64,000 nt of DNA from an uncultured Methanomassiliicoccales archaeon (GCA_949298875.1 CASFYI010000063.1:2021-66020); one strand, 5' to 3'. Positions 7,734 through 61,318 are shown, counted from the stretch's first letter. The notes: a model not told the origin generated them from the letters alone. Made by a program: numbers and translations.

Positions 7734-8222
7734 TCGGTCGGATGTGGGCAGGTCCGCGAAAGCGAAGGACGCGCATCCGTCCGAGATGAGCGACTCCAGG
7801 TCCTCCGTGCCGACCCAGACAGTGCACGTGTTGTCGTTGGGATGTACGCCCATGCGGGACCCGCGGAAACTGGAGTCGACCACCACGTCCACCGAACGGT
7901 CCGGGTCGTTGAGTATGCCGAACGGCGTGACGGACCCGCGCGTTAGCCCGAGGTGCGACATCAGGTCCTCCTCGGAGGCCATGCTGAGGGGCCTGGAACC
8001 TATGACCGTACGGAGGGCCTTCAGGTCCACCCTCTGATCCTCCCTGGCGACCACGAGATAGTACCTGCGCTTCTTGTCGTCCCTCAGGAACAGGTTCTTG
8101 GCGATTAGCTCGGGATGCGGGAGATCCTGCTCCAGCATCTCCTCGATGGTGAACACCGGAGGGTGATGCGCCTCCTCGAATGCTATGCCTCTGGACCTTA
8201 GCAGGCCGAGGATGTCCTCCAT
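7734..8222 (-). CDS. YbaK/ProX prolyl-tRNA editing domain protein (ends at in-frame CGA)
   Basis: HPPVFT, KNLFLRD, GSVTPFG, HPNDN motifs; CGA at 7734-7736 right after the domain end; alternative start 8246. Confidence 0.85.
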
Positions 8223-8334
8223 GCCGAGATGCCGACGCTCTTCCATGCGGAGACGGAACGCGTACGGTGATGATAATGGAGTGTCCTCCGGAATCCCGGA
8301 GGTCGGCGGGCATGCGCCCGCCAGGGTTTGATTA

Positions 8335-9141
8335 TCAGATCCCGATCCACTCGTTGCCGACGATCCTGTGGAGGGCGGCGATGGCAGAGAGGGATGCGAG
8401 ATAGGACGTCTTCGGGTTGTCCGGGGACGGCACGTTGTAGGTGTGGCAGGTCATCTCCCCGAACTCGCCCTTGATCCTGAGCTCGTGGGAGTTGCTGTGG
8501 CTGCCCGGGTCGAGGACGATCTTGACCTTGGTCCTGTCGAACCCGACTCCGAGGAGCGAGACGGTGGCGGCCACGTTTATGTTCCTGGGGAAGAACCTGA
8601 CCGCGTCCCTGGCCGTTCCGGAGAAGATGACCGTGGGCTCCTTCACCTTGTCCACGTCGATCCCGTGGTCGATGATGTACGGGACTCCCTCCAGGCTCTT
8701 AGGGCCCTTGGTGGTGATGAGCTCGACCTCGTCGAGCCTGCCCACGGCGGACGCCCTCAGGCCGTCGGTGCCGCATATCGCACCGGAGGGGATGAAGATC
8801 TTGGCCTCGGAGTTCTTGGCCTTGTCCTTGACCATCATACGGAAGTCGTCGTCCACAAGGGCTCCGACGGACATTATCATCATGTCGACACCGCGGGACA
8901 CGACGCGGGGGGCGATGTCCCTGGCGGCTGCCTGGGAGGCGGCCTCGATAACGAGGTCGCAGTGGTAGAGCTCCTCCTCCACGCTGTCGACCACGATTGC
9001 CTTCTTGAGCCGGGCGGCGAGATCCTCGGCGAGATGCCTCTCCATGTCGACGAGGTAGATCCTCTTGACCTCGGGCATCTCATCGGCGGCGCTGGCCAGC
9101 TTGGAACCGATGGACCCGCAGCCCACTATCGTTATGCGCAT
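8335..9141 (-). CDS. nadX: L-aspartate dehydrogenase
   Basis: GCGSIG, EAAS, SVGAL, PSGAI.G.D, FPRNINVAA, NPKTSYLA. Confidence 0.92.
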   Translation of the reverse strand: MRITIVGCGSIGSKLASAADEMPEVKRIYLVDMERHLAEDLAARLKKAIVVDSVEEELYHCDLVIEAASQAAARDIAPRVVSRGVDMMIMSVGALVDDDFRMMVKDKAKNSEAKIFIPSGAICGTDGLRASAVGRLDEVELITTKGPKSLEGVPYIIDHGIDVDKVKEPTVIFSGTARDAVRFFPRNINVAATVSLLGVGFDRTKVKIVLDPGSHSNSHELRIKGEFGEMTCHTYNVPSPDNPKTSYLASLSAIAALHRIVGNEWIGI

Positions 9142-9280
9142 GGATGGCCGACCGACGGCTTCGGATAATAAGGTTTGCAGACTTTGCAGGAATCCCGCTG
9201 GTAATCGTTCGGATTTCGCGGAATAATTGCGGTATCCGGATGTTTCCCGACGGATTCCGTAGAACCCGTCGGGTGGATGC

Positions 9281-10810: not shown

Positions 10811-10867
10811 TTCGAGTCACCTCTGTTCTTCGGTCGATCCAGGTTACGTAGGATATAAATCGGAAAC

Positions 10868-10887: not shown

Positions 10888-11547
10888 ATGAGAAGCCCAA
10901 TCCCCATCCTCAGGAACACCGGGATCTTCCTGGGGACATCTGATGATGAGATCACAGCGATGTGCAGATGCCTGAACGCCCGCAGGGAGAAGTATCCCAA
11001 GGGAGAGTTCGTGCTTCGCAGCGGGGACCCCGTCGACTGCCTGGGCGTCGTCCTCGACGGCCGCGTCGATGTCATAAAACAGGATTGGTGGGGGAACAGG
11101 ACTCTGGTCTCCTCTCACGGACCGGGCGATGTGATCTTCGCAGAGTACGCGTGCTCGATGGGCGAGCGGGCGGACACGAGTTTCGTCACCAGCGATCGGT
11201 CCGAGATCATGTTCTTCGAGATTTCCAGGGTGACGACGACCTGCCCGTCATCATGCCAGTTCCATTCGAGAGTCGTCAGGAATCTGGTCCAGGCCCTCGC
11301 CCGCGGCACCGTGGAGCGCGACAGGAGGCTGGGGCAGATGTCGAAGAGGAGCATCCGCGAGAAGGTGTGCGCCTACCTGTCCGACCAGGCCAGGATCGCG
11401 GGGAGCAACGAGTTCTCCATACCGCTGAACAGGCAGCAGATGGCCGACCATCTGGGCGTGGACAGGAGCGCCCTGTCGGCCGAGCTCGGAAGGATGCAGG
11501 CCGACGGCGTCCTGAGGTTCTCCAAGAACCGGTTCGAGCTCCTGCGA
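10888..11547 (+). CDS. Crp/Fnr family regulator, HcpR-like (ends at in-frame CGA, 219 aa)
   Basis: cNMP-like domain plus HTH RQQMADHLGVDRSALSAEL; family C-terminus KNRFELL followed by CGA 11545-11547. Confidence 0.88.
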
Positions 11548-12183
11548 TCGCCTGCGGCCCTCCCACTCGTCCAGGAACTCCTCCAGGAAGCCCTCCATGT
11601 AGCGGTGGCGGGACTCCGCCATGGCGCGGGCGGTCGGGGTGTTCATCATGTCCTTCAGCAGGAGCAGCTTCTCGTGGAAGTGGTTGACCGTCGTCCCGCG
11701 GTTGGCGAAGTAGGCGGCCTCGCCCATGCCCTCGCACGGCGGGACCTCCGGATCGTGCATCAGACGGCCCCTGCTCCCGCCGTAGGCGAAGGCCCTGGCT
11801 ATGCCGACGGCGCCTATGGCGTCCAGCCTGTCGGCGTCCTGAACTATCCTCCCCTCCAGCGATGCGGGCACCTCGGTGTCGGCTCCCTTGAACGATATCT
11901 TCGATATGATTTCCACGACCTCGTCCTGGATGCCGGGAGGTATGCCCTCGGAGTCCATGAAGTCCCTGGCGTTGCGGCTCCCCTGTCCGAAGAGCTTGCG
12001 GTCGTCCGCGTCGTGCAGGAGCGCCGCCAGACGGACGACGTCCATGTCGCCTCCCTCCCTGCTGCAGATGGTGACGGCGAGGTCGTGGACACGCATCGAA
12101 TGCCAGTAGTCGTGACCGCCGCTGTCGCCATCGAAGAGGTCGCGGATGAATGCCTTGGCGCGGTCGAAGGTCGCCTCGTCCAT
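11548..12183 (-). CDS. HD domain phosphohydrolase, YedJ-like (ends at in-frame CGA, 211 aa)
   Basis: GHDYWH, LLHDADD, VQDADRLDAIGA, HFHEKLL; family end FLDEWEG followed by CGA. Confidence 0.88.
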
Positions 12184-12207: not shown

Positions 12208-12789
12208 TCGACCTTTGCGAGAGGGCATCGCGTCAACGAGAGCCTCGGGATCGTCGCAGGTCATGGCCGACGACATCACCGCGGCGCCTTGCGCACCTGC
12301 CTCGAGGACGCTCTGGTAGTTGTCAGGGCCCACGCCCCCGATGGCGTACACGGGGACGTCCACGGCCGAGCAGACGTCGCGGAGGAATCCGAGCCCCCTC
12401 GGCTCGGTAGGCTTGCAGGCGGTTCCGAAAACGTGCCCCGCTATGAGATAATCCGCCCCGAGAGACACGGCCTCCTTGGCCTCCTCCACGGAGTGCACGG
12501 ACGCACCCACGAGGTCGAACCCCGACACGTCCCCCTCGCGGAGGTCCGGCATCGGCAGGTGGATCCTTCTGATCCCCAGCATGCCGGCCACCCACACGAA
12601 GTGGTTGACGACCAGAGGCACGCCTAGAGGGTCGCAGATGCGCTTGCATCCAGCCGCCAGTGCCAGGTACTCGCCCTCCGTGAGGTCCTTCTCCCTCAGG
12701 ATTATCATCTCCGGGCGGGCCTCGGCCAGCCTGGCGACCCTCGTCAGGAACGGCTCCCCGCACAGCGAGCGGGACGTGACGGCGATCAT
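12208..12789 (-). CDS. thiE: Thiamine phosphate synthase/TenI-like protein
   Basis: LREKDL, GASVHS, GHVF.T.CK, YAIGG; CGA at 12208, TGA at 12190 if read through. Confidence 0.8.
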
Positions 12790-14701: not shown

Positions 14702-15278
14702 CTTGAATGCAAAATCGGGGTTCCTCCCCCTGTGCCAGATGCATGGCCGCGAGCGCCATGTGACCCGCGCACACGGACACGCGGGCGGCGTTCAGCCTCC
14801 CCTCGGACGCCACGTCAGACACCCCGTCGCCGCAGACCCAGAGACGTCCCATCGCCCTGCGCGTGACTATGGAGTTGGCATCCCCGTCGCCGGCCATCCC
14901 GGAGCATGCGACCACCGTGAACCCGGCCTCCAGCAGGGTCTCGACGAGCATCGCCTTCGACTCCGGGTCGTCCAGGGCCTCGCACACCACGTCGCATGCG
15001 GAGAATATCCCGGCGGCGTTGGAGGTGTCGAGCCTCGTATCGTGGACCTCCACCGATGCCTCGGGATCGATGTCGTGCAGGACGGATACCAGAGCGTCCG
15101 TCTTGGACATGCCCAGATGGCGCGGCAGATATGCCTGTCTGGCTATGTTCGATTCGTCCACCGTGTCGAAATCCGCCACCACGAGGTCGCGGAACCCGGA
15201 GCGGACCAGCATGACGGCCACGTTGGAGCCCATGCCGCCCAGCCCGGCGATCCCTATGCGCACGCCGCTGCCCATCAT
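14694..15278 (-). CDS. thiF: Sulfur carrier protein adenylyltransferase
   Basis: [20 protein letters not shown]; thi operon context. Confidence 0.9.
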
Positions 15279-15993: not shown

Positions 15994-17424
15994 TCGGTCC
16001 ATCAGGGCCCAGCGACCCTTGTTCCTGGAACCCTCGCGGACCAGGACGCCCGCTTCCTTCAGCTCCCTGATTCTTCTAGAGATCGTGCTCGGAGATGTGT
16101 TCATCGCTGTGGCGATCTCCGACATCGTTGCATCCGGATTCGTTCTGAGGTATTCGATAACTCTGGCCCCTGTAACACCGACGGCGGGGTCGTGCGTCGG
16201 CGGCTTGGACGCACCTCTGACGATCTGCATCCTCACTTCCACTGTGGCCGGGTCCACGCTCTCCGTGAACGAAGGTGCTTCGAGACCCTGTTCGATACAG
16301 GTCCTGATCATGCGATGCATTCCGCTCCCGGCACGATCGACCAGACCGACGAGCATGAACATTTTCATGACATTGCGGTTCCTCGGATCGGAGTGTCCAC
16401 CCCGCTCGGCGAGACTTATGGGGATGCGAAAAGTTCCCGGGTTCCTAACTGCGAGAGAATCGCGTCTGAGCTCCACGCGTACACCACCGCTCCCGTTGTA
16501 ATCTGCATGGACAATCGCATTCAGGACGGCTTCCCTCTCGGCCTTCAGGAAATCACTGTCGTCCACGCGCACCACCCCGTCGAGATCGAACGGTCTACGC
16601 GCACCCCATCCGAGACGGTCGCTCACATATGTGTAGAAGTCGAACAGATTGCCAGACCATTCCCCGGTGTCGGTGGTCAGCCTGTCGGACCACTCATCGC
16701 CGTCCTCGTACTCGACGTAGTCTAGAAAGTACCTGGGGAGCTCTCTCGTGATCATATAGTCGCTGCCGAACATGAGGATTCCTGCGATTGTCGGCCTCAA
16801 TTCGCCAGCATCATCGAAGTCGGCCGCACCGATGAGCCTCAGGAACTCCTCGTTAGACTCCTTGTTCCAACGATGCGCCGGCATGCGACTAGACAACATG
16901 TTCCTGTATGCCCCTACAGCCTTGGAGTCCAGGTCCCTCAGGAGAGCCCTGGTACAGAGCGAGCTGTCCATCGAATCATCGCGGGCATCACGCAGCATCT
17001 CCGAGATCTCAGCCATTGAGCAGAGATAGTCTCCCTGACCATTGCGACGATAGGTGCCGCTGTTCATGGATCCGTTGATGTACACCGGGCGTCTCTGACG
17101 CTCCGCCCTGGGAACGGTCACGACTATGACGTCGACACCATCGACTTTCTCCACACTGATGTCATCGTTCAAAAGAAGGTTTACATTGACCTTTATCGGA
17201 TTGTTCAGAAGACTCCATAGATCGTCAACTACGCTGTCTGGATTCTCCACACCCGTCGCTATCAACTTCCTTTTGTCAGCGGGGTCCTCGGAAAGTCCCA
17301 GCACTATGGTCCCACCGAAGGTGTTGGCGAAAGCGGAATATGTCGGCCAGAAATCCTTGGGAAGCTTGTCCGAACACCTCTTCGCTTCGAAATTCACGCC
17401 TTCCCTCATCTTGTCGATATTCAT
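15994..17424 (-). CDS. Schlafen/AlbA_2 + HATPase_c_4 + wHTH protein, 'RecG-like' (ends at CGA)
   Basis: FEAK, YSAFANTFGG.IVLG, REAVLNAIVHADY, NPG, PRN, GSG; family end REGSRNKGRW then CGA 15994-15996; lower GC. Confidence 0.85.
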
Positions 17425-18165: not shown

Positions 18166-18993
18166 ATGCTTAGACTCGGCTGGTTCTCCACAGGCAGGGG
18201 CCCGGGGTCCCGCAATCTCCTGAAGGCTGTCATGGACAGGAAGCTCGCCGGCGACCTGGACGTCGAGATCGCATTCGTCTTCTGCAACTGGTCCAACGAG
18301 GAGTCGGACAACCCGAAGCGCGACCAGCGCAGAATGTTCTTCGACATGATCGAGGGGTACGGGATACCTCTGGTCACGGTCTCGTGGAAGGAGTTCATGC
18401 CAGAGCTCAGGGCCTCCGACGAGGCCGCATGGCGCGACGAGTACGGGAAGGCCCTGAGGGCCGCCGTCGAGCCCTACGACTTCGACCTGGGAATCCTCGC
18501 CGGATACATGCTCTGGATGGACGACGAGACCTGTAACGAGTTCGACATGCTCAACCTCCACCCGGCGCTACCGGACGGACCCGAGGGCACCTGGCAGGAG
18601 GTCATCTGGCAGCTCATCTCCGAGGACGCGGAGAGACAGGGCGCCATGATGCACGTGTGCACCAAGGAGTGGGACCGCGGGGCGGCCATCACATACTGCG
18701 GGTTCCCTATCCGCGGAGGCGACTACGACGCCCTCTGGGAGCAGATGGGAAGGAAGCTGGAATCGTCCACCCTCGACCGGATCAAGGCATCCGAGGGACA
18801 GGAGGAACCCCTCTTCAAGAGAATCAGAGAGGATGGCGCGAAGCGCGAACTCCCTCTCATAACCGAGACCATCAGGGCCTTCGCCGACGGCAGGGTCAGG
18901 ATAGAGGACAAGAGGCCTGTGACCTCGGACGGTACCGTCCGCGGACCCGTGGACCTCTCCGAGATGGTCGACAGGGCGCTGGAGGACCAGCGA
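18166..18993 (+). CDS. purN: Phosphoribosylglycinamide formyltransferase-like protein (ends at CGA)
   Basis: LAGYM, LNLHPALP, GAMMH...WDRG; CGA 18991-18993 overlaps the next ATG (CGATG). Confidence 0.8.
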
Positions 18994-20105
18994 TGCCGGG
19001 AGAGTACGACCCCGCGGAGGAGCTCGGGCTCTTCCCCGACAGGATCCTCGTGACGAACCTCTGCGGTTTCGTCCTTCAGAACGACCCCCTCCGCGACGTC
19101 TGCGCCCGCTTCATCCGCAACGGCGCCCACTTCTACGACGTGGTCAGGAGATACGACCACCTCACCGCCTATGTGCTGGGCAGGGAGGAGGCCACGGCCG
19201 GCAACACCGCCAAATGGGTCATCCCTTTCCTGAAGGCCAACGGCGCCACCGACCATCTCCTGAAGAAGGCGTACGAGGAGACGCTCAGGTTCATGCCCGG
19301 CTCCGAGGACGCGCTCCGCTTCATATCCCGGATGCTCCCCACCTTCGTGTCCACCTCGATCTACAATCACGGATGGATGACCGTCGCCGACAGGATCGAC
19401 GTACCGCTGTGCGAGGTGTTCTGCTCCCAGACCGACCTCGACCACATGCAGTTCGGCCGCGCGGACGCCCGCAGGATGCGCGAGATGTGCGAGACGGTGA
19501 CGTCCCTGCGCATCCCGAAGGTCGAGTACGAGCTCAACGTCCCCATGGAGATCGACGAGTGGGACGTCAAGATCATCAGGACCCTGGACGACATCCTCCA
19601 GAACCAGATACCCGAACTCCCGGCCATGAGCCTCATGGAGTCCTCGGTGCCTGTGACGTCACACCGCAAGGCGTACCAGCTCCTGGACATCAGGAAGCAG
19701 ACCAACATCGACCTGGACTGCACCATGTACATCGGAGGGGACGACACGGACTACCAGTGCCTGGACCTCGTGAGGGACGCGGGCGGGGCGGCAGTCTCGT
19801 TCAACGGGACCGACTTCGCCGTGCGCGGGTGCAACATCGCCATCATGTCAAAGGAGTCCACCGTCGGGGCGGTCTTCGCCTCGCTGTTCTACGACCGCGG
19901 GATCGAGGCCATGATGGACCTGGCGTCGAACTGGGAGAGGCCGTACCTGAAGAAGTGCGAGTTCTCCGACAGGAACCTCCTGGACAGGATGCTCGCGGCC
20001 AACCCGCGCAGGCTGCCGGAGGTGCGGGTGGTGGACAGGCACAACGTGGACGAGGTCGCGAAGAGGAGCGCCGAATTCAGAAGGAAGATGATGCTCGGCC
20101 GCCGA
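18993..20105 (+). CDS. HAD-like protein (EhaR-like), apparently degenerate (ends at CGA)
   Basis: YIGG..TD, GGAAVSFNG..FA motifs; CGA 20103-20105 lies 20 nt before tRNA-Glu. Confidence 0.65.
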
Positions 20106-20305: not shown

Positions 20306-22111
20306 ATGGAAGAGACGGTGATGCTGACGGCGCTGGCGCTGTTCTCGCTGCTCGCCGCGGTCTGTTCCATCGTCTTCAACAAGTTCAAGCTGCCCCCGCT
20401 TATCGGCTACATCATCGCGGGCATCGTCCTGGTGAACGTCATGTTCCTATTCCAGGACAAGGGGACGATCCTCGCCGAAGAGGAGATCATCTCCTTCCTG
20501 AAGGACTTCGGACTGGTCCTGCTGATGTTCTGCATAGGGCTGGAGATCAACATCAAGAAGATTCGCAAGCAGGGGTCCTTCGCCATCCTCGTGGTGGTCA
20601 TCCTGCTGCCCCTCATGCTCACAGGGGGATTCGTGGCCGGGACGCTCCTCGGCTACGACATGACCCAGTCCCTCGTGCTGGGCGCCATAATCTCCGGATC
20701 GTCGTCCGCCGTGCTGCTCGCCGTGCTGAAGACGCAGAACAAGCTCGACCGCGACCACGTGGACATGCTCATCCTCGTCGCCATCATGGAGGACATCGGC
20801 CAGGTCATCATCCTTTCCATGATCACCCCGCTGATGGCGAACTACTCGGCAGGCGCCATGGGCGGGATGGACATCAACGAGATCATCGTCCTGATCGTCA
20901 AGATCCTCGCGTTCATGATCATCAGCATCGTCGTGGGCCTGAGGATCGTGCCGAGGATCATCAACTGGATCTCCGACAACGTGTCCGACGAGATCCTCAC
21001 GGTCGCATCCGTCGGACTGGCGTTCCTCATGGCCCTGCTGGCCACCTACGCCGGCCTGTCCATGGCCATCGGAGCGTTCCTGATGGGCATGATGGTGGCC
21101 AGCAGCAGGAAGGCCAAGGACGTGAACAGCAAGATCGGCCCCATGAGGGACCTGTTCATGGCCGTGTTCTTCATCAGCATAGGTGCGGAGGTCTATCCCG
21201 CGTCCATCCTGGTGGACAATATCGGCACCATCCTGATCTTCTTCGTCATCTACTTCGTCCTGATGACCTGCAACGGGTTCCTGGCGTACTGGATCGGGAA
21301 CGAGACCTGCAGGAACGGGTTCCTTTCTGCGATCAACCTCTGCGCCATGGGGGAGTTCGCGTTCATCATCGCCGCCGAGGCGCTGGCGGACAACGTCATA
21401 GACGACGGGTTCTACACCTCGGTCATCGGCGCGGCGCTGCTCTCGATGATAACCCTCCCGATCGTGTCGCGCTATGCAGGGAGCATCTGGGACGGGGTCG
21501 TGTCCAAGTGCCCCCGCCCCATCTACGCGGCCTGCTGCTCCCTCAACGATGCCAGGTCCAGGACCTACGACCGCCTCTCCGCATCCTCGAAGAAGTCCCA
21601 GAAGGCCGTCTACCGCAGCATGACCCATGCGTACATCAACATCCTGGTCATCGCGGCGATAGAGATCGCCTTCTACTTCCTCACGCCCCCGCTGAGCGGA
21701 TGGCTGCTGGAGTCCTTCGGATGGGATCGGACCGGATGGGTCCTGATGATCCTCGGCGTGAACTTCCTGTTCCTGACGATCCCCACGTACTACATGATCA
21801 ACAACGTGAAGTTCCTGGACGAGATCATCATCGGCGGCGCCAAGCGCATCGCCAACAGGGAGGGGCGCGACTCGAACCCCGTCGCCATGTACGAGAGGTT
21901 CCTGAACTTCCTTGACATCAACACGTACCTCCTGATCGTGCTGATCGACTTCCTGATAATCCTGATCGTCCCCAACGCCGTCGAGGTGGAGCTGTGGTAC
22001 TACGCGGCGATCGTAGCGGTGGCCGCGCTGGCGATACTCGTCCTCTACGTGAGGAAGCGCCGCCAGATAAGGACCGAGATGGCGGGGCAGGATCAGGAAG
22101 AGGATCAGCGA
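20306..22111 (+). CDS. Cation:proton antiporter (CPA2/KefC-like) (ends at CGA)
   Basis: GYIIAG, LLMFCIGLE, SSSAV, MEDI, GAFLMG, FFISIG, GEFAF; CGA 22109-22111. Confidence 0.88.
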
Positions 22112-22936
22112 TCGTCTCCGGACCATCCCGCGCGCCTTTACCGATACCGTCGAGGGCACGTGGCGTGCGAACTTCATGGCCGAGGCGGAGCCGGTGACGA
22201 CCTTCTCGCGGATGTTCTTCTCCTGGCCGATGACATCCACCCGATGACGTCTCACATCCTCCAGGATCCCCTCCACGGTGGACGACTGGCACACGGTGAC
22301 GACGCCGCCGAGGCCGTTGAGGACATGGGAGTCGGTGCCCCCGGTGAACCCCAGCCCGTACCCCCTGGCGGCGGCGAGGGAGTTCTCGTTGGATTCGCGG
22401 GTCATGCCCCCGGAAATCACCTCGTACGCGTCGAGGCGCCTCGCCACCGATGGCATGAGGATGCCCTTGCGGATGCAGATCTCGACGCCCTTGTTGGTGT
22501 TGAAGTATCCCGAGGGATGGGCGGCTGAGACGACGCAGTCCTCCATCTCGCACATGTCCAGGAGCCTCTCGGTGGTGCAGTCCCTGAGGGCCAGCCACGG
22601 GTTCTCCTGGATGCGTGGGCGGATGCGCGTGTACCAGAACCTCTCCAGGGAGCGGGATGTGGGGAAGTAGACCAGTATGTGCGGGCCGTCGGTGGTGCTG
22701 ACCTCCATCCCCGGGACGACGGGGACGGAGGAGCGCACCTCCTTCAGCCTCAGCACCGACTGGATCAGGTTGTGGTCGGTGACGGCGAACCCCACGCCCA
22801 TGCGCTCCGCCAGACGGAGGGCGGCGACGGGATCCGTGTCAGAATCCGAGCACCTGGTGTGGTAGTGCATGTCCACCGGCGTCAGGCCCTCGGACCTGAT
22901 CGCCGGTATGTCCGGCACCTCGAACTCCGCCCTCAT
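22112..22936 (-). CDS. PHP domain phosphoesterase (ends at CGA)
   Basis: DMHYHT..SD, AVTDHN, GMEVST..GPH, AAHP, GGTDSH; ATGA overlap with upstream gene; CGA 22112-22114. Confidence 0.88.
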
Positions 22937-25196: not shown

Positions 25197-26303
25197 TCGC
25201 TCGGCCGCATCCAGCGGATAGAAGCCCGCGGTGCCCCAGTGGGTCCCGCGTCCGAACTGGGAGGAACCGCCGGACATGTAGCCCACCGGCACCTGGTCCC
25301 TCGTAGTCTCCGCCGCGTAGAACACCGTGGATGCCGTCTCGCCCTCACAGGTGCCCTCCACCGGAACGGACGCCGCCAGGCGGAAGTACCCGTATCCGAG
25401 ATCGTCCAGACGATCGGCGGGAACCTCCTCGAAGCCCGGGATCGCTACCCCTGCGAACACGTGCCCGTTCGTCCCTCCGACCGCCGCGTCGTATCCTGCC
25501 GAGGCGTACATCGCCGCCAGGAGGACGGCCGTGTCCTCGCAGTCGCCCTTCATCATGGCCAGCGTCTGGAGCGGGGTCGCCCAGTACTCGTCGGCGCCGT
25601 AGATCTCCATGTCCTCGCCGGCTATCGAGCCGCCCTCGTACACGCGGTCGGGATACTCTATCGCGAGCTGCGGGAACGAGGCCAGGAAGTCGGCCAGGGC
25701 CTGGCGGTCGCCGGCATCGCCTCCGATCCTGGAGAACTCGGATGCCAGGGAGTCCACCAGCGAATCGACGGTGTCCGACCCCATCGCGAGACCCGGCAGG
25801 TCCGAGAAGCGGCGGGTGTCCTCCCCGCCGACCGAGTTCTCTCCGTTGTAGGCCTCCGCGACAAGGTACTCCGCGTAGAGGTCGTGGGGGTCGATGCCGT
25901 AGGCGACCGTGACCGCGTGGACAGCCCCGTCGAGATCGTACTGCCAGGTGGCCTCCCTGCGGATCTCGCCGTCCATCACGACGTCGAACTCGAGGTCCCC
26001 GGTCCTGAGCGTGTAAATCCCGGGACCCAGGCGTATCGTGTCCCCGTGCATCGTCTCCCATCCGGCGACCTCCAGGCCCCCGTCGGTGGCGGTGCCGTAG
26101 GGTGCGGTCAGGTCCAGGACGTACCATGTTCTCGCGCCCTCCATCGAGACCGTCCCGGCCTCCCAGTCGACCGCGACCCCGTCCGGATAGTCGTATGACG
26201 GATGCTCGTCGGCGGTCTGGCCGCCCCCGAGGCTGAGGATGGCGACGGCTGCCACGGCGATCGCCACGATGAGGGCCAGGAGCTCCATCGCACGGAGGCT
26301 CAT
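25197..26303 (-). CDS. Membrane-anchored transglutaminase-like protein (ends at CGA)
   Basis: N-terminal TM; EYWATPLQTL..GDCED, GH, AETT; CGA 25197-25199 just past the MBL stop. Confidence 0.75.
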
Positions 26304-29885: not shown

Positions 29886-30539
29886 ATGGCCTACAGGATC
29901 CCCAGCGACGACGAGGTGGCCAGGTCCATCGACGACTGCCTCGCCCGGTGTCCGCGCATGCGCTCCCAGAGGGAGCTCTGCGACGCCGTCGCCGCCGACC
30001 TGGCGTACCGCGACCCGCTCTTCAGGGTCGGGGCCGACCGCGTCAGGCGCATCGGGATCGAGAGGGGGCTCATCAACCTGGAGATCAGCTACGCTTCCAG
30101 CGACCGCCCCGTCGGCGACCTGTGCCCCGTGTGCGGCAACCCTATGACGTCGGTCCGCAACCGCACCCTCGACGGGGGCACGGTGGAGATGAGCAGGTCC
30201 TGCAGGAGATGCGGGTACATCGCCAAGGGAACGGAGACCAAGCCCGCCCGGTACGAGATCGGCAGGAAGGCGAAGGTCGATCCGGACACCCGCATAGGCA
30301 TGCTCCGCGAGGCGCAGACGCTCCTCCTTCGTGCGGCGGACCTCATGGACGGCGCCCTGAGGATGTCCGGCCTGGAGGCCCGCTCCGGCGACGACTCCAA
30401 GACCATCCGCAGGATCGCCGGGGACCCGTCGTACGGCGGGAGCCTCCGCAATCTGGCACTCGACCTGGAGAGGCTCGAGGACGACCCGCTCTGGACCCGT
30501 CCGCTGACCTCCCCCAAGCGCATGTTCGAGAAGGACCGA
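29886..30539 (+). CDS. Hypothetical Zn-ribbon protein (ends at CGA)
   Basis: CPVC..CRRC; CGA 30537-30539 ends the ORF 49 nt before the next gene. Confidence 0.7.
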
Positions 30540-44409: not shown

Positions 44410-45487
44410 GTCTGATCTCCTCCTCTATTCCGCCCTCGGGTCTGGGGAACACGACGGATGCGTTCCTGTCGAAGGACAGGCGCACGGTATCTCCCACCTC
44501 GGGGACCTCACCGTCTGCAGGTACATCGTACTCAATATAGTCACTGCTCTCGGCCATGGTCCTCACCCTCCAGTAGACCCCTCTGAAGGACACAGAGCGC
44601 ACCTTGGCCTCGATCCCGTCCTCGTCCGGACGCACGTGCTCCGGCCTCACGGACACGACGACGGCGTCCCCGGGACGGAAGTCCGTGCGGGACACGCGGA
44701 TCTCACGGCCGCCGCGCATAGTGACCCTGGTCTTCCCGCTCTTGGACCAATCGGAGACGGTGCACTCGAAGAGGTTGGTCTCCCCGATGAAGTTGGCCGC
44801 GAAGACGGACTTCGGACGGCGGTATATGTCCAGGGGCGCGCCGGACTCGGCGATGGCGCCGTAGCGCATGAGCACGATGCGGTCGGAGACCGACATGGCC
44901 TCCTCCTGGTCGTGTGTGACGTGGAGCACGGTTATCCCGAGCTTCTTGACGATCCTGCGGAGCTCGTACCTGAGCTCGACGCGGACGCGGGCGTCCAGCG
45001 CGGACAGGGGCTCGTCGAGCATCAGCATCTTGGAACCGGATGCCAGCGCGCGGGCGATGGCGACCTTCTGCTGCTCCCCTCCGGAGAGCTCCGACGGGAG
45101 CATCCCAGCCCTCTGGAACATGCCCACGAGCTTGAGGTACTCCTCGGACAGCTCGGCCATCCTCTCGTCGCCCTGGTCCTTCACCCTGGGGCTGTACTCG
45201 ACGTTGTCCCTCAGGTTCATGTGCGGGAACAGGGCGATGTTCTGGAACACGTATCCTACGTCCCTGTCCTCCATGGGGATGTTCGTGACGTCCCTCCCGT
45301 CCACGTAGACCTTCCCCTCGGTCGGGGTCCAGATCCCCGATATGACCTTGATGAGCGTGGTCTTGCCGCAGCCCGAGGGACCGAGGATGGTCACGTACTC
45401 GCCGTTCCCGATCTCCAGGGAGATGTCCCTGACGGCGTAGAAATCGCCGAAGCGCATGGAGATCCTGTCCAACTTGATCCTTGCCAT
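44402..45487 (-). CDS. ABC transporter ATP-binding protein (TOBE domain)
   Basis: GPSGCGKT, LSGGEQQ, LDEP; ATG lies in a CGATG overlap; ends TAA. Confidence 0.92.
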   Translation of the reverse strand: MARIKLDRISMRFGDFYAVRDISLEIGNGEYVTILGPSGCGKTTLIKVISGIWTPTEGKVYVDGRDVTNIPMEDRDVGYVFQNIALFPHMNLRDNVEYSPRVKDQGDERMAELSEEYLKLVGMFQRAGMLPSELSGGEQQKVAIARALASGSKMLMLDEPLSALDARVRVELRYELRRIVKKLGITVLHVTHDQEEAMSVSDRIVLMRYGAIAESGAPLDIYRRPKSVFAANFIGETNLFECTVSDWSKSGKTRVTMRGGREIRVSRTDFRPGDAVVVSVRPEHVRPDEDGIEAKVRSVSFRGVYWRVRTMAESSDYIEYDVPADGEVPEVGDTVRLSFDRNASVVFPRPEGGIEEEIRLE

Positions 45488-46587
45488 CGGTCCAACCTCA
45501 TCTCCTCTTCGAGCCCGCCGGCGGGCATCTGGAACACCGTCGCCTTGTCGGCCGGCCACGACACGTCGACCGTGGCACCGACGCTGAACTCCTCGAACCT
45601 CGCGCTCGGCAGCTTGGACGACACCAGGCCCAACGCCCCGGCGGAGACCTCCACGGTCACGGTGGCGCCCTCGTACACGATGCGCTCCACTATGCCCTTA
45701 ACGGACCCCTCCGGGCCCTCTCCGGGGGCCGAGAGCCTGGTGAACCCGACCTTGACGGCGAGCACCGCCTCGGAGCCGGGCTCCATTCCGTCCCCCCTCC
45801 CGGTCAGGACGATCCCGCCGACGTCCACGGACACCCTGCCGTCGCCGGCTCCGACGACCCTGCCGGAGAATATGTTGGACCTGCCCACGAAGTTGGCCAC
45901 GAACGGCGTGGCCGGGTTCTCGAAGACCTCGCGGGGGGTCCCGAACTGTATGATCCTGCCCTTGCGGATGACGGCGATGCGGTCGGCCATCTCCAGGGCC
46001 TCGTCCTGGTCGTGGGTGACATGGATGCACGTGAGCCCCATCTCCTTGGCCAGGGACCTGAGCTCCTTCCTCAGGTCTATCCTCAGACGCGCGTCCAGCG
46101 CCCTGAGCGGCTCGTCCAGCAGGAGGATCTTCGACCCGGACGCGAGCGCACGCGCGAGGGCGATGCGCTGCTGCTGCCCTCCCGATAGCTCCCCGGGGAC
46201 CCAGTCTGCCTTCTGGTCGAGATGCACCAGGTGCAGCATGCTCCTGACGATCTGCTTCGACTCGTCCTCCGGCCACCCCTTGGTCTTGGGGGCGAACATG
46301 ACGTTGTTGTAGACCGTCATGTGCGGGAAGAGCGCGTAGGTCTGCGTGAGCATGGTGGCGTTCCTTGAGTCCGGCGAATCCATGGTCACGTCCCTCCCGT
46401 CCAGGAGCACCCTCCCGGAATCGGGGATCGTCAGACCGCAGATCATCCTCATGGCGGTGGTCTTCCCGGCCCCGGTGGGGCCCAGGATGCAGACGTACTC
46501 CCCGTCGCCTATGGTCAGGCTCAGATGGTCGGCGGCGACATGGCCGTCGAAGTCCTTGCAGAGGTCGTCCAGAACTATCTCAGGCAT
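45487..46587 (-). CDS. ABC transporter ATP-binding protein (ends at CGA)
   Basis: GPTGAGKT, LSGGQQQ; ends EEEMRLD-CGA, matching the paralog's EEEIRLE-TAA. Confidence 0.92.
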
Positions 46588-49000: not shown

Positions 49001-49870
49001 TCGGTTCACCGCCTCGGTCACCAGCTGGCCGGGCGAGTCCTCGAGGGTCCCTGAGGACCAGTCCGTCTTGATCTCCAGATAGATGGTGCCGTAGGGCAGC
49101 TCGTCCTGCCAGACGGCGAGCCTGCCGTCCCTGACCAGGTGGAGCACCGCCACGAAGGTGGTGAGGTTCTCCTGCAGGTCGGCGGTGTAGAGGTCGCGGA
49201 TGGCGATCTGCCCGGTGCCGAGCCTCTCGATCCGCTTCCAAACGGCCTCGACGTCGCGCTCGTCGTCCTCGTCGTGGGCCTTGTTGTCGAACCTCTTGGG
49301 CTCCTTGGCCTTGAGCTCGCGGCGGACGCGCTCGCGCTCGCGCTGGATCTCGATGTCCCTGCGGGCGTCCTCGAAGGCGTCGATGAGCTCGTACACGGTG
49401 ACGGGCCTCTCGGTCTGCCTCCTGAACGCCTCCTTGAAGCTGACCTCGGGCACGTACAGCGGCTCGTCCTCGAAGAAGAAGCTGTCGTCCGCCTCCTCGA
49501 TGACCGGCTCAACCGGCGGCTCGCTCCTGGCCCTGGTGGACTCGGACTGCATGCGCAGGATCCTCCACGCCATGAGCAGCAGCTTGCCGGCGACGATCAT
49601 GTCGAAGCTGTCCCTGGAGACCTTGGCCTCGTACATGCGGGCGAACTCCGAGAGGTCGACCTCCCAGGGGTCGATGCCCTTCTCCAGCACCAGGCTGAAG
49701 ACGGCCCTGATCGACTCGTCCACGGGGTCCTGGAGCCTCTCCCCGGACTCCGCCCGGGAGAGGATGTCCATGTATCCTCCTATCCTCCTGAGCGACTCGT
49801 CGTCGTCGGCGAGCGCCCTGTGGAACAGCAGATGCTGCTCCAGATCCTCCATCCTTGTGTTCCCATCCAT
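49001..49870 (-). CDS. scpA: Segregation/condensation protein ScpA (ends at CGA)
   Basis: IDPWEVDL, AGKLL.MAW.IL, F.A.LHL...G...WQ; CGA 49001-49003 ends 1 nt before the scpB TTG. Confidence 0.9.
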
Positions 49871-53655: not shown

Positions 53656-54996
53656 TCGATCGTCGAATGACTGGAGTATGAGCTCGGGGAGCTCCGCGAC
53701 GGACCCGAGGACGGCGGTCGGATGGATGTCGGAACCCTCCAGCATCCTCTCGTCGGTCTCTCCGGAGAGGACCAGAACCGACTGCGTGCCGGCGTTCTGC
53801 GCCATCGCGATGTCCGTGTACAGACGGTCACCAATCATGACGCACTCGCCCGGGTCGACGCCCATCTCGCGGGCGGCCATCTCGAGCATCAGACGGTTGG
53901 GCTTCCCGATGACCGTCGCGGTCGTCTGGCACATCTGCTCGAACATCCTGATGAACGGCCCGATGTCTATGTCGTAGGAGTCCTCGGTGGGGCACAGGTC
54001 GTCGGGGTGCGTGGCTATTAGTTCGGCACCGCCCTTCAGGAACCTGTACGCCCTGTTGATCTTCTCGTAGGTGATCGTCGTGTCGAAGGTCAGCAGCACG
54101 ATGTCCGGGTCATCCTCGACAAGCGGGATGCCCGCCTCCCTCAGCTCGTCGACCACCCCGGGCACAGCCACGGGGTACACGGTCCTGCCCATCCGCTGGG
54201 AAAGGAGGAACCTTATGGTCGCGATCGTCGAAGTCAGGACATCGCGGTCGGTGACGTCGAACCCCAGGTGCCTGAGCTTGTCGCCGTAGAACGAGCGCGG
54301 GTGGGACGAGTTGTTCGTCAGGAAGACGAAGGGCACCCTCTGGTCCCTCAGGAACGAGATGAGCTCCCTGGCCCCCGGGATCGGGACGCCGCCCTTGTAG
54401 ACGGTCCCGTCCATGTCCAGCATCAACCCGCCGAACCTCATGGCCTTCGGCTCCCGCCGCTCCGGCTTCCCCAGCCACTGGGACACGACCCTCATGGTCT
54501 CGTCCAGCGCCGCGCGCGAGTTGCGGTTGTATATCGTCGCCGCCGGATGGTACGTGGGGATGAACAGGACCTCGCGGCCGTTGATGTCTATCGTCACGGG
54601 AACGTTGACGATCTGGGACATCGGGCCCTCGTACCCCATCAGGTCCCTGCACGCCGACTTCCCCAGGCCGACCACCAGCCTGGCGTCCTCCAGCTCGGAG
54701 AACAGGAACGGGCGGCAGGCGGCCATCTCCTCCGGGAGGGGGTCCCTGTTGCCCGGAGGCCTGCACTTGACTGTGTTGGTGATCATGACGTCGGCGCGGC
54801 TGAAGCCGTGGGCCGCCATCATATCCTCCAGGATCTTCCCCGACTTGCCGACGAACGGTCTGCCCTTCAGGTCCTCGTTCTCGCCAGGACCCTCCCCGAC
54901 GAAGATGATCCCGTTGCCGGGGTTCCCGTCCGGGTAGACGACCTGTGTGCGGCCCTCGCAGAGTCCGCAAAGCCTGCAGTCGGGATCCGGCCTCAT
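53656..54996 (-). CDS. Family-4 uracil-DNA glycosylase fused in-frame to a HAD-IIA (NagD-like) phosphatase (ends at CGA)
   Basis: CxxC, GEGPG..E, KCRPP.NR, YHPAA; then DMDGT, TNN, GKP, GDRLYTD; CGA 53656-53658. Confidence 0.8.
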
Positions 54997-56150: not shown

Positions 56151-57590
56151 TCGCCGCCGGACGACCCATCTGCCGCGGGTGCCGCCGGATCTCTCCACCA
56201 CACCCATCGCCTTCAGATTCTGAATGCGAGTGTACACGGCCGAAGGGGTCAGATCCAGCTTCTCGGCCATGGAGCTGACCGAAATCCGGTCATTCTGTTC
56301 CATCATGGACATTATGGATTCGTCGGCCTTGCTATCGCTCGATGCCGACATGAAGCTAAGTCTGAGCACCACTCTCGGAGGACCGTACTCCTGGACGTAC
56401 TCCGGTCTGGCCAGACCGTTGGATTCCCAGATCGACATTATGCGCAGCACCCCTACGCCGATGCGCTCCACCTTCCCAATCAAATCGAACATCCTCGCCA
56501 GCGTTGGATTGCGCGGATCGCTGTGACCTCCAGCTTCGGCCTTCTCCAGGGGGATGTGGAAATCACCGTAGTTTGATACGGTCAGCGTCCTGATGCGTCT
56601 GACCAGGCGTACGCCTTCACGACCAGCGTAGTCATTGTTGATCAGAGCATTCAGCAACGCCTCCCTGATGGCTGTCTGTAGGTCCGTCGACATGATGCGA
56701 TCGAACCCGTTCGGGACGGATGTTCCACTCGTTTCGGTGGAAAGGCGTCTAACGACTCTGCTGTAAAAGTTGTAGATGTTCCCGACCCAGGTCGTATCCC
56801 TTGTGGAGAGTCTGTACTCCCAATCCAGACCAGCATCAGTACATTCCAGATAATCGAGATTGAAGCTGCCGTTCCAACGCAATATGCGTTCATAGCGACC
56901 GAACATCAGCAGACCCGCTACTGTGAGATGTGACTCGCCGCCTTCGGAATCCATGGCTCCGATCGCTTTCAGGAAATCCTCCACCTCCAGCCTGTTCAGG
57001 ATGCTATCTGGGTTGGCTGAGCGGAGTTCATTGCGATATTCAATCACGGAATTCATGTCGAGATCGTCGATTCCCATATTGGTCAGGACGGAACGGTCGA
57101 TCGGACCAACGTTATCACGGATCATCGAATCGATCTCATCCATGGTACACATGAAATCGCCCTCACCTCCGCGACGGAAAGTGCCATCGTCACGACGGCC
57201 GTTGATGAACACCGGCCTCAGACGACGATCGGCACGCGGCACCTCCAGGATTATGATGCTCTTCCCATCAACTTCCAGCGTCTTGATGTCCTGTATCAGA
57301 TTCACACTGACCTTCTGATGGTTGTGAAGACAGGTCCATATGTCCTGCACCATCTTGTCCGGATCGGCGATACCCGTGATCGTAGGCTTTCCATCGACCT
57401 CCGATACACCTAGAACGATGATTCCTCCCTCCGTATTGGCGAAGGCGGAATATGTCGACCACATCGATTCGGGGAGGCCCTTGGATGCCGACTTGTATTC
57501 CACATCGACGGATTCCGAACATAGGTCGGAACCTTCGATCAGAAACTCACTTCTGTCAATTATGTTCCTGAATGCCTCCCTGATTTCCAT
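56151..57590 (-). CDS. Schlafen/AlbA_2 + HATPase_c_4 + wHTH protein, second paralog (CGA end; TAA at 56142)
   Basis: EYK, YSAFANTEGG, REALLNA, PRNP, GGTRGRW; lower GC. Confidence 0.85.
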
Positions 57591-58649: not shown

Positions 58650-58750
58650 GCCCCGGCGATGGCGACGCTGAAGATAAAGGGAGCGACCCGGGGATGGTAT
58701 AATCCGTTTCCCCTTCCAGTATATACGCCGGATCGCGATATATCATCCTC

Positions 58751-59611
58751 ATGACATCAGGAGTGCTGGGAATCATCGGATGCCCCATGCTCGAGGACAA
58801 CCTGGTCTACTGTCTGAGGAAAGACCCCGAGCCCAGGGACATCGCCATCATCAGGAACGACAACATCGGGTCGATATGCAGGAAACTGGAGATGCACTCC
58901 ATCCCCTACAGGATCATAGAGGAATCCGATTTCAAGGCCGGGAGATACGAGCCGGTCGAGGGGGAGTTCAACCTCGTGATCATGCTGTTCAGCCTGGGCC
59001 TCCACGCGGTCCCCGAGGATCTCAAGGCCACGGTGGAGTCCATGACGGAGGAGATGCAGCCCTTCGTGGATGCTATAGGGTTCTACCTGGGCACCTGCGG
59101 GACATACGAATGGGACATCCCCAAGTGGTGCGAATCCAAGGGCTACAAGCCGTCGGCCATGTTCTGCGACGAGAAGGGCAACCTGTGCCACGACTGCGTC
59201 GGCGTCAACATCGCCGGCGGACCCAAGTACCTGCAGATGGAGAAGCACTACCCCGGCTGCATCTACGTGTTCCCGGCCATGGCCACGAACTACGACGATT
59301 TCATGAGGGCCAACAACAAGGAGCAGGAGGCCATAGCCAAGAACATGACCCCCGAGATGATGGAGGTCCTGGGCATCGAACCCGGTGCGGACGGGTACAT
59401 GAGATGGCTGCTGAGCCTCGGCAACTACCGGTACCTGCTGAAACTCGACAATGGCATCGGCGACGAGGGGTTCGACGAGAACCTGAGGAAGCTGGAGGAG
59501 AGGACCCATCTCGAGATCAAGGACGCCGAGCCGGGGTGGGCCAGCACCCAGCCTACCGTGGATCTGTACGCGAAGTGCAAGTCGCTCCTGGATCAGGCTC
59601 ACAGCGGCTGA
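58751..59611 (+). CDS. DUF1638-like protein
   Basis: GC.MLE, LGLH..P..L, YLG.CG, HDC; typical neighbour of corrinoid methyltransferases. Confidence 0.7.
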   Translation: MTSGVLGIIGCPMLEDNLVYCLRKDPEPRDIAIIRNDNIGSICRKLEMHSIPYRIIEESDFKAGRYEPVEGEFNLVIMLFSLGLHAVPEDLKATVESMTEEMQPFVDAIGFYLGTCGTYEWDIPKWCESKGYKPSAMFCDEKGNLCHDCVGVNIAGGPKYLQMEKHYPGCIYVFPAMATNYDDFMRANNKEQEAIAKNMTPEMMEVLGIEPGADGYMRWLLSLGNYRYLLKLDNGIGDEGFDENLRKLEERTHLEIKDAEPGWASTQPTVDLYAKCKSLLDQAHSG

Positions 59612-60183
59612 AGAGGACGGGATCCGTCCGGAGGCTGGCTGTAGAAGACCATCGAGAAGTAGGACTGCTCCGTGTTCCCGCCCCTGCGGTCTATCCCGTT
59701 GGACAGGAGGAAGGCCGTGAGGTCGATCCCGTAAGACTCTATCGAGAACATCCTGTCCTGGGGGTGGATACAGCGGCCCTCCGGGCACGGGCAGGACCCG
59801 CACAGAGAACACGCGCCGGCTCCGAGCATCTTGAACCCGAGACCGGCCATCCCCCTGAGCCTGTCGCGGACCTCGAACGTGTACCTCGCGTGAGCCGCCA
59901 TCGACTCCCCCATGCCCTTCAGGTCGAAGGGGCCGTCGCGAGGATGGGTCGTCCTGATGAGGATGACCCTGTCGTAACGGGAGAGGATCGACTCGCAGGT
60001 CGGGCAAGGCGGGACGTGCGGGAGGCAGGACCAGCTCCTGCCGTAGTGCCCGCAGTAGTTCATCTCGCAAGCGCGGCGGACCTCCTCGATGATGCTGACC
60101 GGATGCTCCGACAGGTCGAAGGACCCGATGTAGGTGACGTTCGGATTCCCGACCGAGCGCACGGCCGCCTCGACGAGATCCAT
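59599..60183 (-). CDS. DUF2284 metal-binding protein
   Basis: C..N.CG.YGRSWSC.P, GAC..C..C, SIESYGID. Confidence 0.8.
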   Translation of the reverse strand: MDLVEAAVRSVGNPNVTYIGSFDLSEHPVSIIEEVRRACEMNYCGHYGRSWSCLPHVPPCPTCESILSRYDRVILIRTTHPRDGPFDLKGMGESMAAHARYTFEVRDRLRGMAGLGFKMLGAGACSLCGSCPCPEGRCIHPQDRMFSIESYGIDLTAFLLSNGIDRRGGNTEQSYFSMVFYSQPPDGSRPLQPL

Positions 60184-60184
60184 C

Positions 60185-61318
60185 TCGGCATCCCCCCTCC
60201 GAAGAGGACCTCAGCGGGTTGTAGAACACGAACACGACAGCAAGCAGCGCTCCGACGGCGGCCGCCGCCCACAGGTTGAACACCAGGTGCTCCCCTGCCA
60301 GCACGTCACCGACCGTGCTCCATGCCAGCGAGATGAAGCAGCCGGCGTACTGCGCCGACGTCGCCAGGGCGGTCGCGAACGCTAGGGTTGACGGCTTGCT
60401 GATGATCCCCGCCCAGTCCACGAAGGCCGGGATTATCATGCCGAATCCGAATCCGAACACGGCCAGCCCGACAGTCATCATCGCGCCGCTGTCGAAGACC
60501 GCCTGGATGAGCGCCCCCGCCGCGGTAGCGACCCACAGCACCGGGAAGACGGCGCGGGTGGAGAGCGACCTGATGCGCGAGTAGAGCATGCCTCCCACGC
60601 ACCCTAGGGCGGTGAAGACGGACAGTGCCAGGCCGGACACGGCGGATCCTCCGGCGCCACGCTGCTCGAACAGCTCGGACGTGTTCTGCATGACCGAGAA
60701 CTGCAGCATGCCGTACACCATGAACAGGACCACGATGAGCAGGATCCTGCGGTCGAGGCCCCTCCATCCCATCGGTCCCGCGCTGCGGACGTCCGGGATC
60801 ATGAAGGACATCGCCAGTGCCACGACGAACAGCAGGTAGCCGTAGAACGTCGTCTGCCAGCCCATGTCCGCCAGGAAGCCGCCCATCGACTGCAGCACTA
60901 TGCCGCCCAGATTGAGCATCAGGCTTCCCACGGACAGGAGCTTGGCCCTCGCGTCCCCCTCGAACCCTCCGTTGACCAGGGCGTTGGCCATGGGGATGAG
61001 GAGTCCGACCCCGATCCCGACCGCCGCGCGGCAGACCAATATCGCGACGAAATCATCGATGAACGCCGGCACCACGCCCGCCACGAGGCACAGCGCGGAG
61101 CCGGCGACCGCCATCGTCCTGTAGCCGACCCTCCTGCCTGCGACGAAGCCGAAGGCGATGCCGGCGATGGCGATGAAGATGGTTGGAAGGGAGTTTATGA
61201 GCGCGTACTCCTGGTCGGGGAAGGCCTCTGCGAACTTCGCCATGGCCGGGGTCACTATGCAGAAACCCAGGCTGAAGAAGTACAGGGTCATGACGGCCGC
61301 CAGGTCGGTTCTGCCCAT
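60185..61318 (-). CDS. MFS transporter (ends at CGA)
   Basis: About 12 TM segments, G......G.R and R...G.G motifs; CGA 60185-60187 ends 1 nt before the next ATG; start could be 61339 or 61348. Confidence 0.85.

Follow-up and report, generated by a model that had tools for sequence, protein, structure and literature searches.

CGA as a likely leaky stop codon in a Methanomassiliicoccales archaeon and its family

The DNA studied here, a window of 64,000 nt from an uncultured Methanomassiliicoccales archaeon (GCA_949298875.1 CASFYI010000063.1:2021-66020), raises the question of how its genes end, because many of its reading frames carry an in-frame CGA, an arginine codon, where the protein family ends. 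A first-pass annotation of the window proposed that CGA is read as stop, through loss of tRNA-Arg(UCG) plus an altered archaeal release factor aRF1, or that it is edited to UGA in the mRNA. Studying the host genome together with its relatives, we consider it likely that CGA is used in two ways, mostly as a stop via aRF1 and sometimes as arginine via a probably weakened tRNA-Arg(UCG); a CGA within the aRF1 gene itself is predicted to exert negative feedback.

The window sits on contig C63 of the assembly G000 (1.34 Mb, 93 contigs, 62.7% G+C, 80% complete). Genes were called with a self-trained gene model in which CGA was set as stop, giving 1,333 predicted genes, 1,271 of them closed. G000 was compared with the near-identical genome G062, the single-contig relative G045, a further relative, G046, and G091 from another genus; of these relatives, the DNA compared amounts to 1.06 Mb from the 1.89-Mb genome G045, 0.42 Mb from G046 and 0.16 Mb from G091.

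Gene ends at CGA

The closed genes of G000 end with TGA (917), CGA (304), TAA (42) and, in just 8 of 1,271 cases, TAG. The end of a CGA-terminated gene was taken to agree with its orthologue if the stop of the relative lies no more than five codons from the CGA. Among 586 G045 orthologues this could be measured for 121 CGA-ended genes, and 113 of them agree (99 TGA, 2 TAA, 12 CGA; 57 exact). The same test gives 382 out of 390 for TGA-ended genes and 5-27% for eight control codons. The orthologue alignment that the first-pass annotation had suggested as a check thus places CGA at homologous stop positions, and its claim that CGA occupies the positions of TGA is borne out. With table 11 just 23 of the 113 genes end near the orthologue stop, while 58 overrun it by more than 30 codons. 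The coding score of table-11 open reading frames (ORFs) is +0.37 per codon before the first CGA and -0.29 after it, and the score after the first CGA is negative in 55 of the 71 ORFs with at least 20 codons on either side.

A one-base overlap with the next ATG is found for 33 CGA ends versus 27 TGA ends, and CGA is involved in 22 out of 25 tail-to-tail abutting stop pairs. The base at +4 is U in 179 of 304 CGA ends compared with 290 of 917 TGA ends (p=8e-17); GA directly follows nine of the 304 terminal CGAs. Sorted into fifths by codon bias, a rough proxy for expression, 22 of 252 genes end at CGA in the top fifth, rising to 107 of 253 in the lowest, which may include false gene calls. On these comparisons of sequence, a function of the terminal CGA as termination signal can be regarded as well supported.

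Twelve CGA ends are common to G000 and G045, including that of a gene which we take to be Elp3-like. In the loci compared from the near-identical genome G062 all 27 stops are the same, three of them CGA, and pelota ends at CGA in five out of 27 genus loci reaching the end of the gene. Tandem in-frame CGAs after the terminal CGA are enriched in G000 (107 of 303 versus 48 and 60 off frame). For canonical stops that could serve as backup within 10 codons downstream of CGA, G045 shows an enrichment (24 of 46 versus 233 of 857, p=0.0006) and G046 none (35 of 176 versus 44 of 164). The U at +4 and these excesses fit leaky termination, though an excess of backup stops or tandem CGAs would also arise were some CGAs arginine near a C-terminus. 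In a 97-aa gene (G000:C69:6263; L285), G000 and G045 share the position of a CGA that precedes a similar tail of five residues and a canonical stop; this CGA may be either stop or arginine.

In the window, all 20 terminal CGAs named by the first-pass annotation are CGA on the strand given, in frame, and close frames open for 201-643 codons. Its run-on distances were also matched: read as arginine, the frames continue to the next canonical stop for 359 (crp), 475 (MFS), 472 (NrdG-like) and 554 codons (PHP, into the antiporter gene). A 21st site, not listed before, closes thiF. With CGA as stop the ORFs of the window tile with little overlap, compared with the standard reading. In the relatives' DNA the orthologue stop is measurable for 12 of the 21 sites; 11 agree within five codons and PHP disagrees. 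The sites are as follows (offsets in codons):

7734..7736, minus strand: terminal CGA of the ybaK-like gene, in frame; orthologue TGA at offset -3 in G045; Pfam tRNA_edit
11545..11547, plus strand: terminal CGA of the crp-like gene; orthologue TGA at offset 0; tail-to-tail with the CGA of the HD gene (CGATCG)
11548..11550, minus strand: terminal CGA of the HD-domain gene; orthologue TGA at offset 0
12208..12210, minus strand: terminal CGA of the thiE-like gene; orthologue TGA at offset 0; an RNA-library contig keeps C
14715..14717, minus strand: terminal CGA of thiF; orthologue TAA at +1 (G045) and TGA at 0 (G091); TGA in an RNA-library contig from a strain about 2% diverged
15994..15996, minus strand: terminal CGA of AlbA_2/HTH gene 1; HTH matches extend to residue 471 of 476
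18991..18993, plus strand: terminal CGA of the purN-like gene; orthologue TGA at -2 and -3; overlaps the next ATG (CGATG)
20103..20105, plus strand: terminal CGA of a 370-aa gene (first annotated as HAD; no Pfam match); orthologue TGA at -1
22109..22111, plus strand: terminal CGA of the Na/H antiporter, in frame; abuts the CGA of the PHP gene
22112..22114, minus strand: terminal CGA of the PHP-like gene; orthologues end 36 and 22 codons later, so that homology does not confirm it
25197..25199, minus strand: terminal CGA of a 368-aa gene, transglutaminase-like by its first annotation; in frame
29424..29426, plus strand: terminal CGA of the membrane AlbA_2 gene, in frame
30537..30539, plus strand: terminal CGA of a 231-aa gene (first annotated as Zn-ribbon); next canonical stop 563 codons on
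33465..33467, plus strand: terminal CGA of the NrdG-like gene; abuts a convergent TGA (CGATCA)
37059..37061, minus strand: terminal CGA of the ArsR-like gene; orthologue TGA at +4; canonical stop two codons on, weak alone
40621..40623, plus strand: terminal CGA of nop5; TGA directly next; orthologue TAA at -4 in G091; weak alone
45487..45489, minus strand: terminal CGA of the ABC ATPase gene; orthologue TGA at offset 0 in G045 and G091; overlaps the next ATG
49001..49003, minus strand: terminal CGA of scpA; orthologue TGA at offset 0
53656..53658, minus strand: terminal CGA of the UDG-HAD gene; Pfam matches extend to residue 436 of 446
56151..56153, minus strand: terminal CGA of AlbA_2/HTH gene 2; canonical stop two codons on, weak alone
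60185..60187, minus strand: terminal CGA of the MFS transporter gene; next canonical stop 475 codons on

A DNA contig from another run (X3) equals window positions 7266-8105 with 0 differences and covers the 7734 site; a second X3 contig equals 10035-14395 with 2 differences in 4,360 bases and covers three CGA sites.

Concerning the rarest stop, a pyrrolysyl-tRNA synthetase above the family cut-off is encoded in G000, and a few in-frame TAG codons within aligned genes (G000:C52, C93; L256, L260, L289) are candidates for pyrrolysine. The tetranucleotide CTAG is strongly avoided genome-wide (observed/expected 0.25).

Sense CGA codons and the cognate tRNA

Inside genes CGA is nearly absent. When table-11 ORFs of the relatives were aligned to G000 (208,469 codons, 13,733 of them Arg-box codons), ten CGAs were found, of which six lie at ragged ends and one (on C6) is ambiguous, as it faces an Arg of a 650-aa homologue yet has no open frame upstream. 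Three are clearly internal, standing at Arg columns with 88-93% identity downstream: codon 78 of aRF1 (C33:48329, in the gene at G000:C33:48098-49327), codon 30 of L18e (G000:C41:6253) and codon 301 of a gene presumed from its motif to be CarB-like (G000:C86:2231, minus strand, a conserved Arg position). Internal CGA makes up 3 of 10,429 Arg codons in G045 and 1 of 1,527 in G091; given the partial coverage of G045, G046 and G091, further shared internal CGAs may remain unseen. The sense CGAs named here are an incomplete set: a coding-score scan for internal CGAs returned 23 candidates, mostly antisense or out of frame, and did not recover the L18e codon.

The first-pass annotation had noticed that arginine was never encoded by CGA in the genes which it spot-checked. 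This near-absence holds for the genome, but the aRF1, L18e and CarB-like genes depart from it. CGA at conserved Arg positions of essential genes, which the same annotation had named as an observation speaking against a stop, does occur in small numbers (aRF1 codon 78, L18e codon 30). CGA is likely dual in G000, and not simply reassigned. The CGA of the CarB-like gene is private to G000, G062 having CGT, and was for this reason rejected as a conserved regulatory site; it may be a leaky nonsense allele of recent origin or an erroneous base.

The CGA of L18e is found in 30 out of 30 genus loci examined. Across the order a pattern search finds it in 142 of 145 listed genome rows, including 39 of 39 rows from outgroup families (counted by eye; 49 further matches were unlisted and five listed rows of other genes were set aside), and the site is CGT in G046, G001 and G053. 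Because outgroup families share it, this CGA predates the code change. The bases around it (codons 29-33, G000:C41:6250-6272, L382) are nearly invariant throughout the order, even where CGA is ordinary Arg. A read-through structure at this place was rejected, as the region has no stable fold (z -0.34) and no Rfam match. Proteins or small RNAs may bind at these bases, in the gene that opens an operon whose members we take to be L18e-L13-S9-RpoN.

Two further loci contain in-frame CGAs. A gene that is presumably gmhA-like ends at CGA, and the frame of a presumably gmhB-like HAD protein continues in frame, having no start codon before its first motif (G000:C41:3385-4416). The pair is possibly a fusion made only by read-through; the arrangement has no homologue among the loci compared. 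Another in-frame CGA (G000:C81:9708) lies in what is probably, to judge from a motif, the reverse transcriptase of a group II intron; read by the host code, this foreign gene would be cut short. A change of CGG to Trp was considered for G000 and rejected: 158 of 304 aligned CGG codons stand opposite Arg, and Trp columns carry TGG 1,471 times, CGG being outside their six commonest codons.

The proposed loss of tRNA-Arg(UCG) did not hold up, since the gene is present at C24:31886-31959 of G000, with A20, an A31-A39 mismatch and C38. All 17 tRNA-Arg(UCG) genes found in the genus have an anticodon stem of four pairs, 14 being broken at 31-39 and three at 27-43. These three (L334, L337, L339; G007, G008, G015) carry C33 instead of the usual U33, plus A37, a second way of altering the tRNA. 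The rows of outgroup tRNAs, read by eye, are paired and nearly invariant. Of 201 genomes from the order, 173 contain a match resembling tRNA-UCG. As to the search itself, loose patterns gave mostly chance matches, and a stricter pattern missed the C33 variant, which was recovered by the RNA model; the same model shows tRNA-UCG in G008, G015 and G007. In G046 (87% complete) no tRNA-UCG is among the six best of 24 RNA-model matches. A paper on tRNAs with four-pair stems covers bacteria, and one of its analyses omits the UCG/CCG pair (PMC13092985).

The release factor aRF1 and the proposed mechanism

The aRF1 gene of G000 has a continuous frame, and its full 410-aa product matches TIGR03676 above the cut-off; the closest aRF1 carrying an archaeal genus name is that of Ca. 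Methanoprimaticola sp. (L177, 91% identity). The first-pass annotation expected an altered aRF1, and one residue next to the NIKS motif does differ: position 65 (aligned with human eRF1 Arg68) is Met or Leu across the clade. The NIKS and YxCxxxF motifs themselves are intact. The tips with Met or Leu65 form one clade (97 tips, support 0.978). Position 65 is Arg in the matched aRF1 structures, which we take to be of Halobacterium and Aeropyrum type. Seven loci whose aRF1 has Arg or Asn65 use CGA for 56 of 1,209 Arg codons, and none of their 48 genes ends at CGA. Further changes in the aRF1 of CGA-rich genomes are Ser for Gly in the GTS-type loop (G000, G062) and Asn-His at 66-67 (G046, L124).

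Codon 78 is CGA in 19 out of 21 genus genomes. Taking all distinct aRF1 genes with Met or Leu65, 87 of 92 have an internal CGA, and 81 have exactly one. The site varies by lineage (codons 78, 25, 11, 123, 50, 327 or others, mostly in the N-domain) and changes repeatedly on the tree, with 20 parsimony steps including multi-site labels and with two gapped or partial rows left out. In 98 loci, some duplicated, CGA accounts for 103 of 2,016 Arg codons in aRF1 compared with 60 of 18,127 in neighbouring genes. In the 20-kb regions of 40 genomes, the one CGA in aRF1 is the only internal CGA of most family members, and five outgroup regions hold 5-26. That the site moves and yet the codon is kept points to selection for the codon and not for local structure. 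Among 30 pelota loci none has an internal CGA.

Work on eukaryotic factors, cited here from parts of the papers, suggests how such a factor could act. In human eRF1 the 59-68 loop adjoins the first base of the stop codon, the loop with Arg68 is tied to first-base recognition and A-site positioning, and R68A loses release at all three stops (PMC3632111). Peptide release at CGA by yeast eRF1 competes with the tRNA and increases with the L123R substitution; the authors remark on an Arg at this place in an archaeal aRF1 (PMC7379694). We find Arg at the equivalent position in 106 of 106 aRF1 rows, which may predispose archaea to CGA release.

CGA termination is not restricted to G000. Among predicted genes CGA closes 47 of 993 in G045, 6 of 159 in G091 and 177 of 373 in G046, a range of 4-47% in the three relatives. 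The pattern is seen in most Methanomethylophilaceae loci sampled, while sister families use CGA as ordinary Arg. In G046 the aRF1 site is CGC and the L18e site CGT; its 3,960 aligned Arg codons include one CGA, which probably marks a shared gene end, and none that is clearly internal. By these features, taken with the tRNA-UCG not found among its best matches, G046 has likely completed the switch from sense to stop.

From these observations we propose the following mechanism. The aRF1 would accept C at the first codon position, aided by U at +4, and would compete with the tRNA at each CGA, which would make termination leaky and context-dependent. When aRF1 is abundant, its own translation would break off at codon 78; when it is scarce, Arg would be inserted there. 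This feedback would also limit the harm done at the unavoidable L18e CGA. Once CGA terminates, a first-base change from T to C at TGA would be nearly neutral, and CGA ends would accumulate, most in GC-rich lineages; the G046 lineage would have finished the switch. We are inclined to regard the family as a living series that shows a cellular code turning a sense codon into a stop, in which a change of aRF1 made CGA a fourth stop, a hobbled tRNA was kept for the CGAs of aRF1 and L18e, and the loss of both codons and of the tRNA in at least one lineage (G046) led to a finished code with CGA as commonest stop.

Several observations weigh against this proposal. Cells need the ribosomal protein L18e in quantity, yet its translation has to pass a CGA, and the next bases GAT also follow the terminal CGA of the MFS gene, so that local context alone cannot separate sense from stop. 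Canonical backup stops within 10 codons of the CGA are not clearly enriched in G000 (92 of 300 versus 227 of 898, p=0.07). Arg123 is common to outgroups and therefore cannot be the switch, and Met65 is insufficient: locus L237 has it and nevertheless uses CGA for 21 of 254 Arg codons. A few internal CGAs occur in several loci that branch early and have Met65, though their aRF1 has none; five of the 98 Met/Leu65 loci lack a CGA in aRF1. The tRNA-UCG of the other genera of the family is variable and, read by eye, mostly paired at 31-39. In G006 (93% complete) no tRNA-UCG was found, though both internal CGAs are present; the missing tRNA of G046 may therefore be an assembly gap. L237 itself, a family member with four TAG ends, is possibly a reversal to the standard code.

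Other explanations have to account for the same data. Editing of C to U in the mRNA, the alternative offered by the first-pass annotation, would convert the terminal CGA to UGA and leave the code standard, which suits the 99 TGAs among 113 orthologue stops and the retention of tRNA-UCG and sense CGAs; two small deaminase-family genes are present in G000. The RNA-library contigs among the listed pieces span two of ten window CGA ends, with no matched DNA of that strain, and one of the two, that of thiF, reads TGA. In the same run C is kept at the CGA of thiE, in the same operon. The strain has diverged by about 2%, and its G>A (17) and A>G (25) changes balance each other, as in strain polymorphism. 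An editor would have to spare 28,327 nnC|GAn and 6,945 NCG|A off-frame CGAs in coding DNA, and editing leaves unexplained the purged sense CGA, the single CGA of aRF1 at shifting sites and the joint changes in G046. Editing is thus disfavoured, its T at thiF notwithstanding, and we hold it to be quite improbable. Another explanation, an artefact of assembly or base calling, or chance, could be suspected in an assembly of 93 contigs and 80% completeness. T at the CGA sites, which the first-pass annotation would have taken as a sign of it, is not seen in the X3 contigs and in G062, which carry the same letters at the sites covered. CGA ends occur in many other genomes, one of them a single contig, and the control codons behave otherwise (5-27%), which leaves this explanation a practically negligible chance.

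Two more explanations place the cause in translation. CGA could be nearly unread, so that ribosomes stall and are rescued by pelota and peptidyl-tRNA hydrolase or by unspecific action of aRF1. The apparent impairment of tRNA-Arg(UCG), the presence of a pelota gene and the rescue-like release at CGA in yeast (in the part of PMC7379694 cited) would fit, but CGA ends 24-47% of genes in G000 and G046, and the 33 one-base overlaps with the next ATG suit ordinary termination with re-initiation. Since the +4 preference and the feedback-like CGA, present in aRF1 and absent from pelota, also point to aRF1, stalling is improbable as an explanation. Strict site-programmed recoding, with CGA always a stop except where a signal in the mRNA forces Arg at aRF1 and L18e, and without leak or feedback, agrees with the nearly invariant surroundings of the L18e codon and with the unclear enrichment of backup stops in G000. 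It is difficult to combine with the aRF1 CGA at six or more different codons among lineages, with the lack of a fold or Rfam family at L18e, and with a private CGA that the CarB-like gene tolerates or, at the least, contains; we give it very little weight. The competition of aRF1 with a weakened tRNA remains the reading which we prefer.

Comparison with other codes and consequences

In the dual codons of ciliates the meaning is set by nearness to the 3' end of the mRNA. In G000 the 33 CGA ends that overlap the next ATG likely lie, because of this overlap, inside operon mRNAs. Like the context-dependent codons of ciliates (PMC4967479, in part) and the ambiguity of amber and pyrrolysine in methanogens (PMC12626013 and bioRxiv 10.1101/2024.09.30.615893, in part), G000 likely uses one codon as both sense and stop in one genome; in those cases canonical stops gained sense, whereas here a sense codon would have gained stop.

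Sense codons turned into stops are known from organelles, AGA/AGG in vertebrate mitochondria and UUA/UCA in peDinoflagellate plastids; the plastid case is called the first outside mitochondria in the part of the paper at hand (PMC12574857). The likeness lies in a sense codon at homologous 3' ends, with a changed release factor proposed as the cause. Unlike these, G000 is a cellular archaeal genome with a factor of eRF1 type, which has kept the cognate tRNA and a few sense uses: CGA stands at homologous 3' ends, but it is not absent from genes and its tRNA is not lost. The bacterial prfB gene (RF2) resembles aRF1 in an early in-frame codon where the release factor's own product can terminate (PMC11463598 and PMC13245932, in part). 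There the bypass is a +1 frameshift at UGA, whereas the aRF1 frame is continuous, the codon stands at an Arg column and the site moves between lineages. Autoregulation is also reported for plant eRF1. An early, conserved, termination-prone codon is thus shared (87 of 92 genes) and a programmed +1 frameshift is not found; as the frame continues and CGA stands at an Arg column, a bypass would be decoding by the tRNA. The code resembles both the organelle change and the prfB feedback, but it departs from each in a defining feature. In yeast, too, an eRF1-family factor competes with a poor tRNA and frees the peptide at CGA; what is described there, as far as the excerpt of PMC7379694 goes, is a weak side reaction on reporters, while in G000 it appears to end hundreds of native genes.

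Among archaea, the KACI preprint reports a candidate CGG-to-Trp code from two Njordarchaeales assemblies (bioRxiv 10.64898/2026.04.02.715157). As in G000, CGA is missing there from conserved domains, and the author floats CGA as stop, untested in the part cited, the method being unable to infer stops. Njordarchaeales are another archaeal order with tRNA-UCG missing and CGG as Trp; in G000 CGG is Arg, TGG is Trp, tRNA-UCG is kept and the gene ends were tested. A Codetta screen, as far as its text was available, found no archaeal sense codon with another amino acid, with 218 uninferred (PMC8629427), and the main text of the preprint on the pyrrolysine code, in the portion available, has no mention of CGA (bioRxiv 10.1101/2024.09.30.615893). 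We found no description of CGA termination in Methanomassiliicoccales in the literature searched, most subscription papers being outside that search.

Altogether, CGA termination is likely a leaky sense-to-stop code, extending through the family and likely finished in one lineage. Such changes are described for organelles. As current code-finding tools cannot call stops, according to the KACI preprint, the code of G000 would be missed. Gene calls with table 11 are wrong for 4-47% of genes (extended or fused) in these gut methanogens, and a plain table with CGA as stop would break aRF1 and L18e. If true, the reading presented here would show an eRF1-type factor relaxing its first-base rule and would add an archaeal release-factor feedback loop. 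It would also offer a testable case of the 'ambiguous intermediate' route by which codes may evolve: early, middle and finished states would stand side by side within a single family, which has a cultured member with existing proteomics, Methanomethylophilus alvi.

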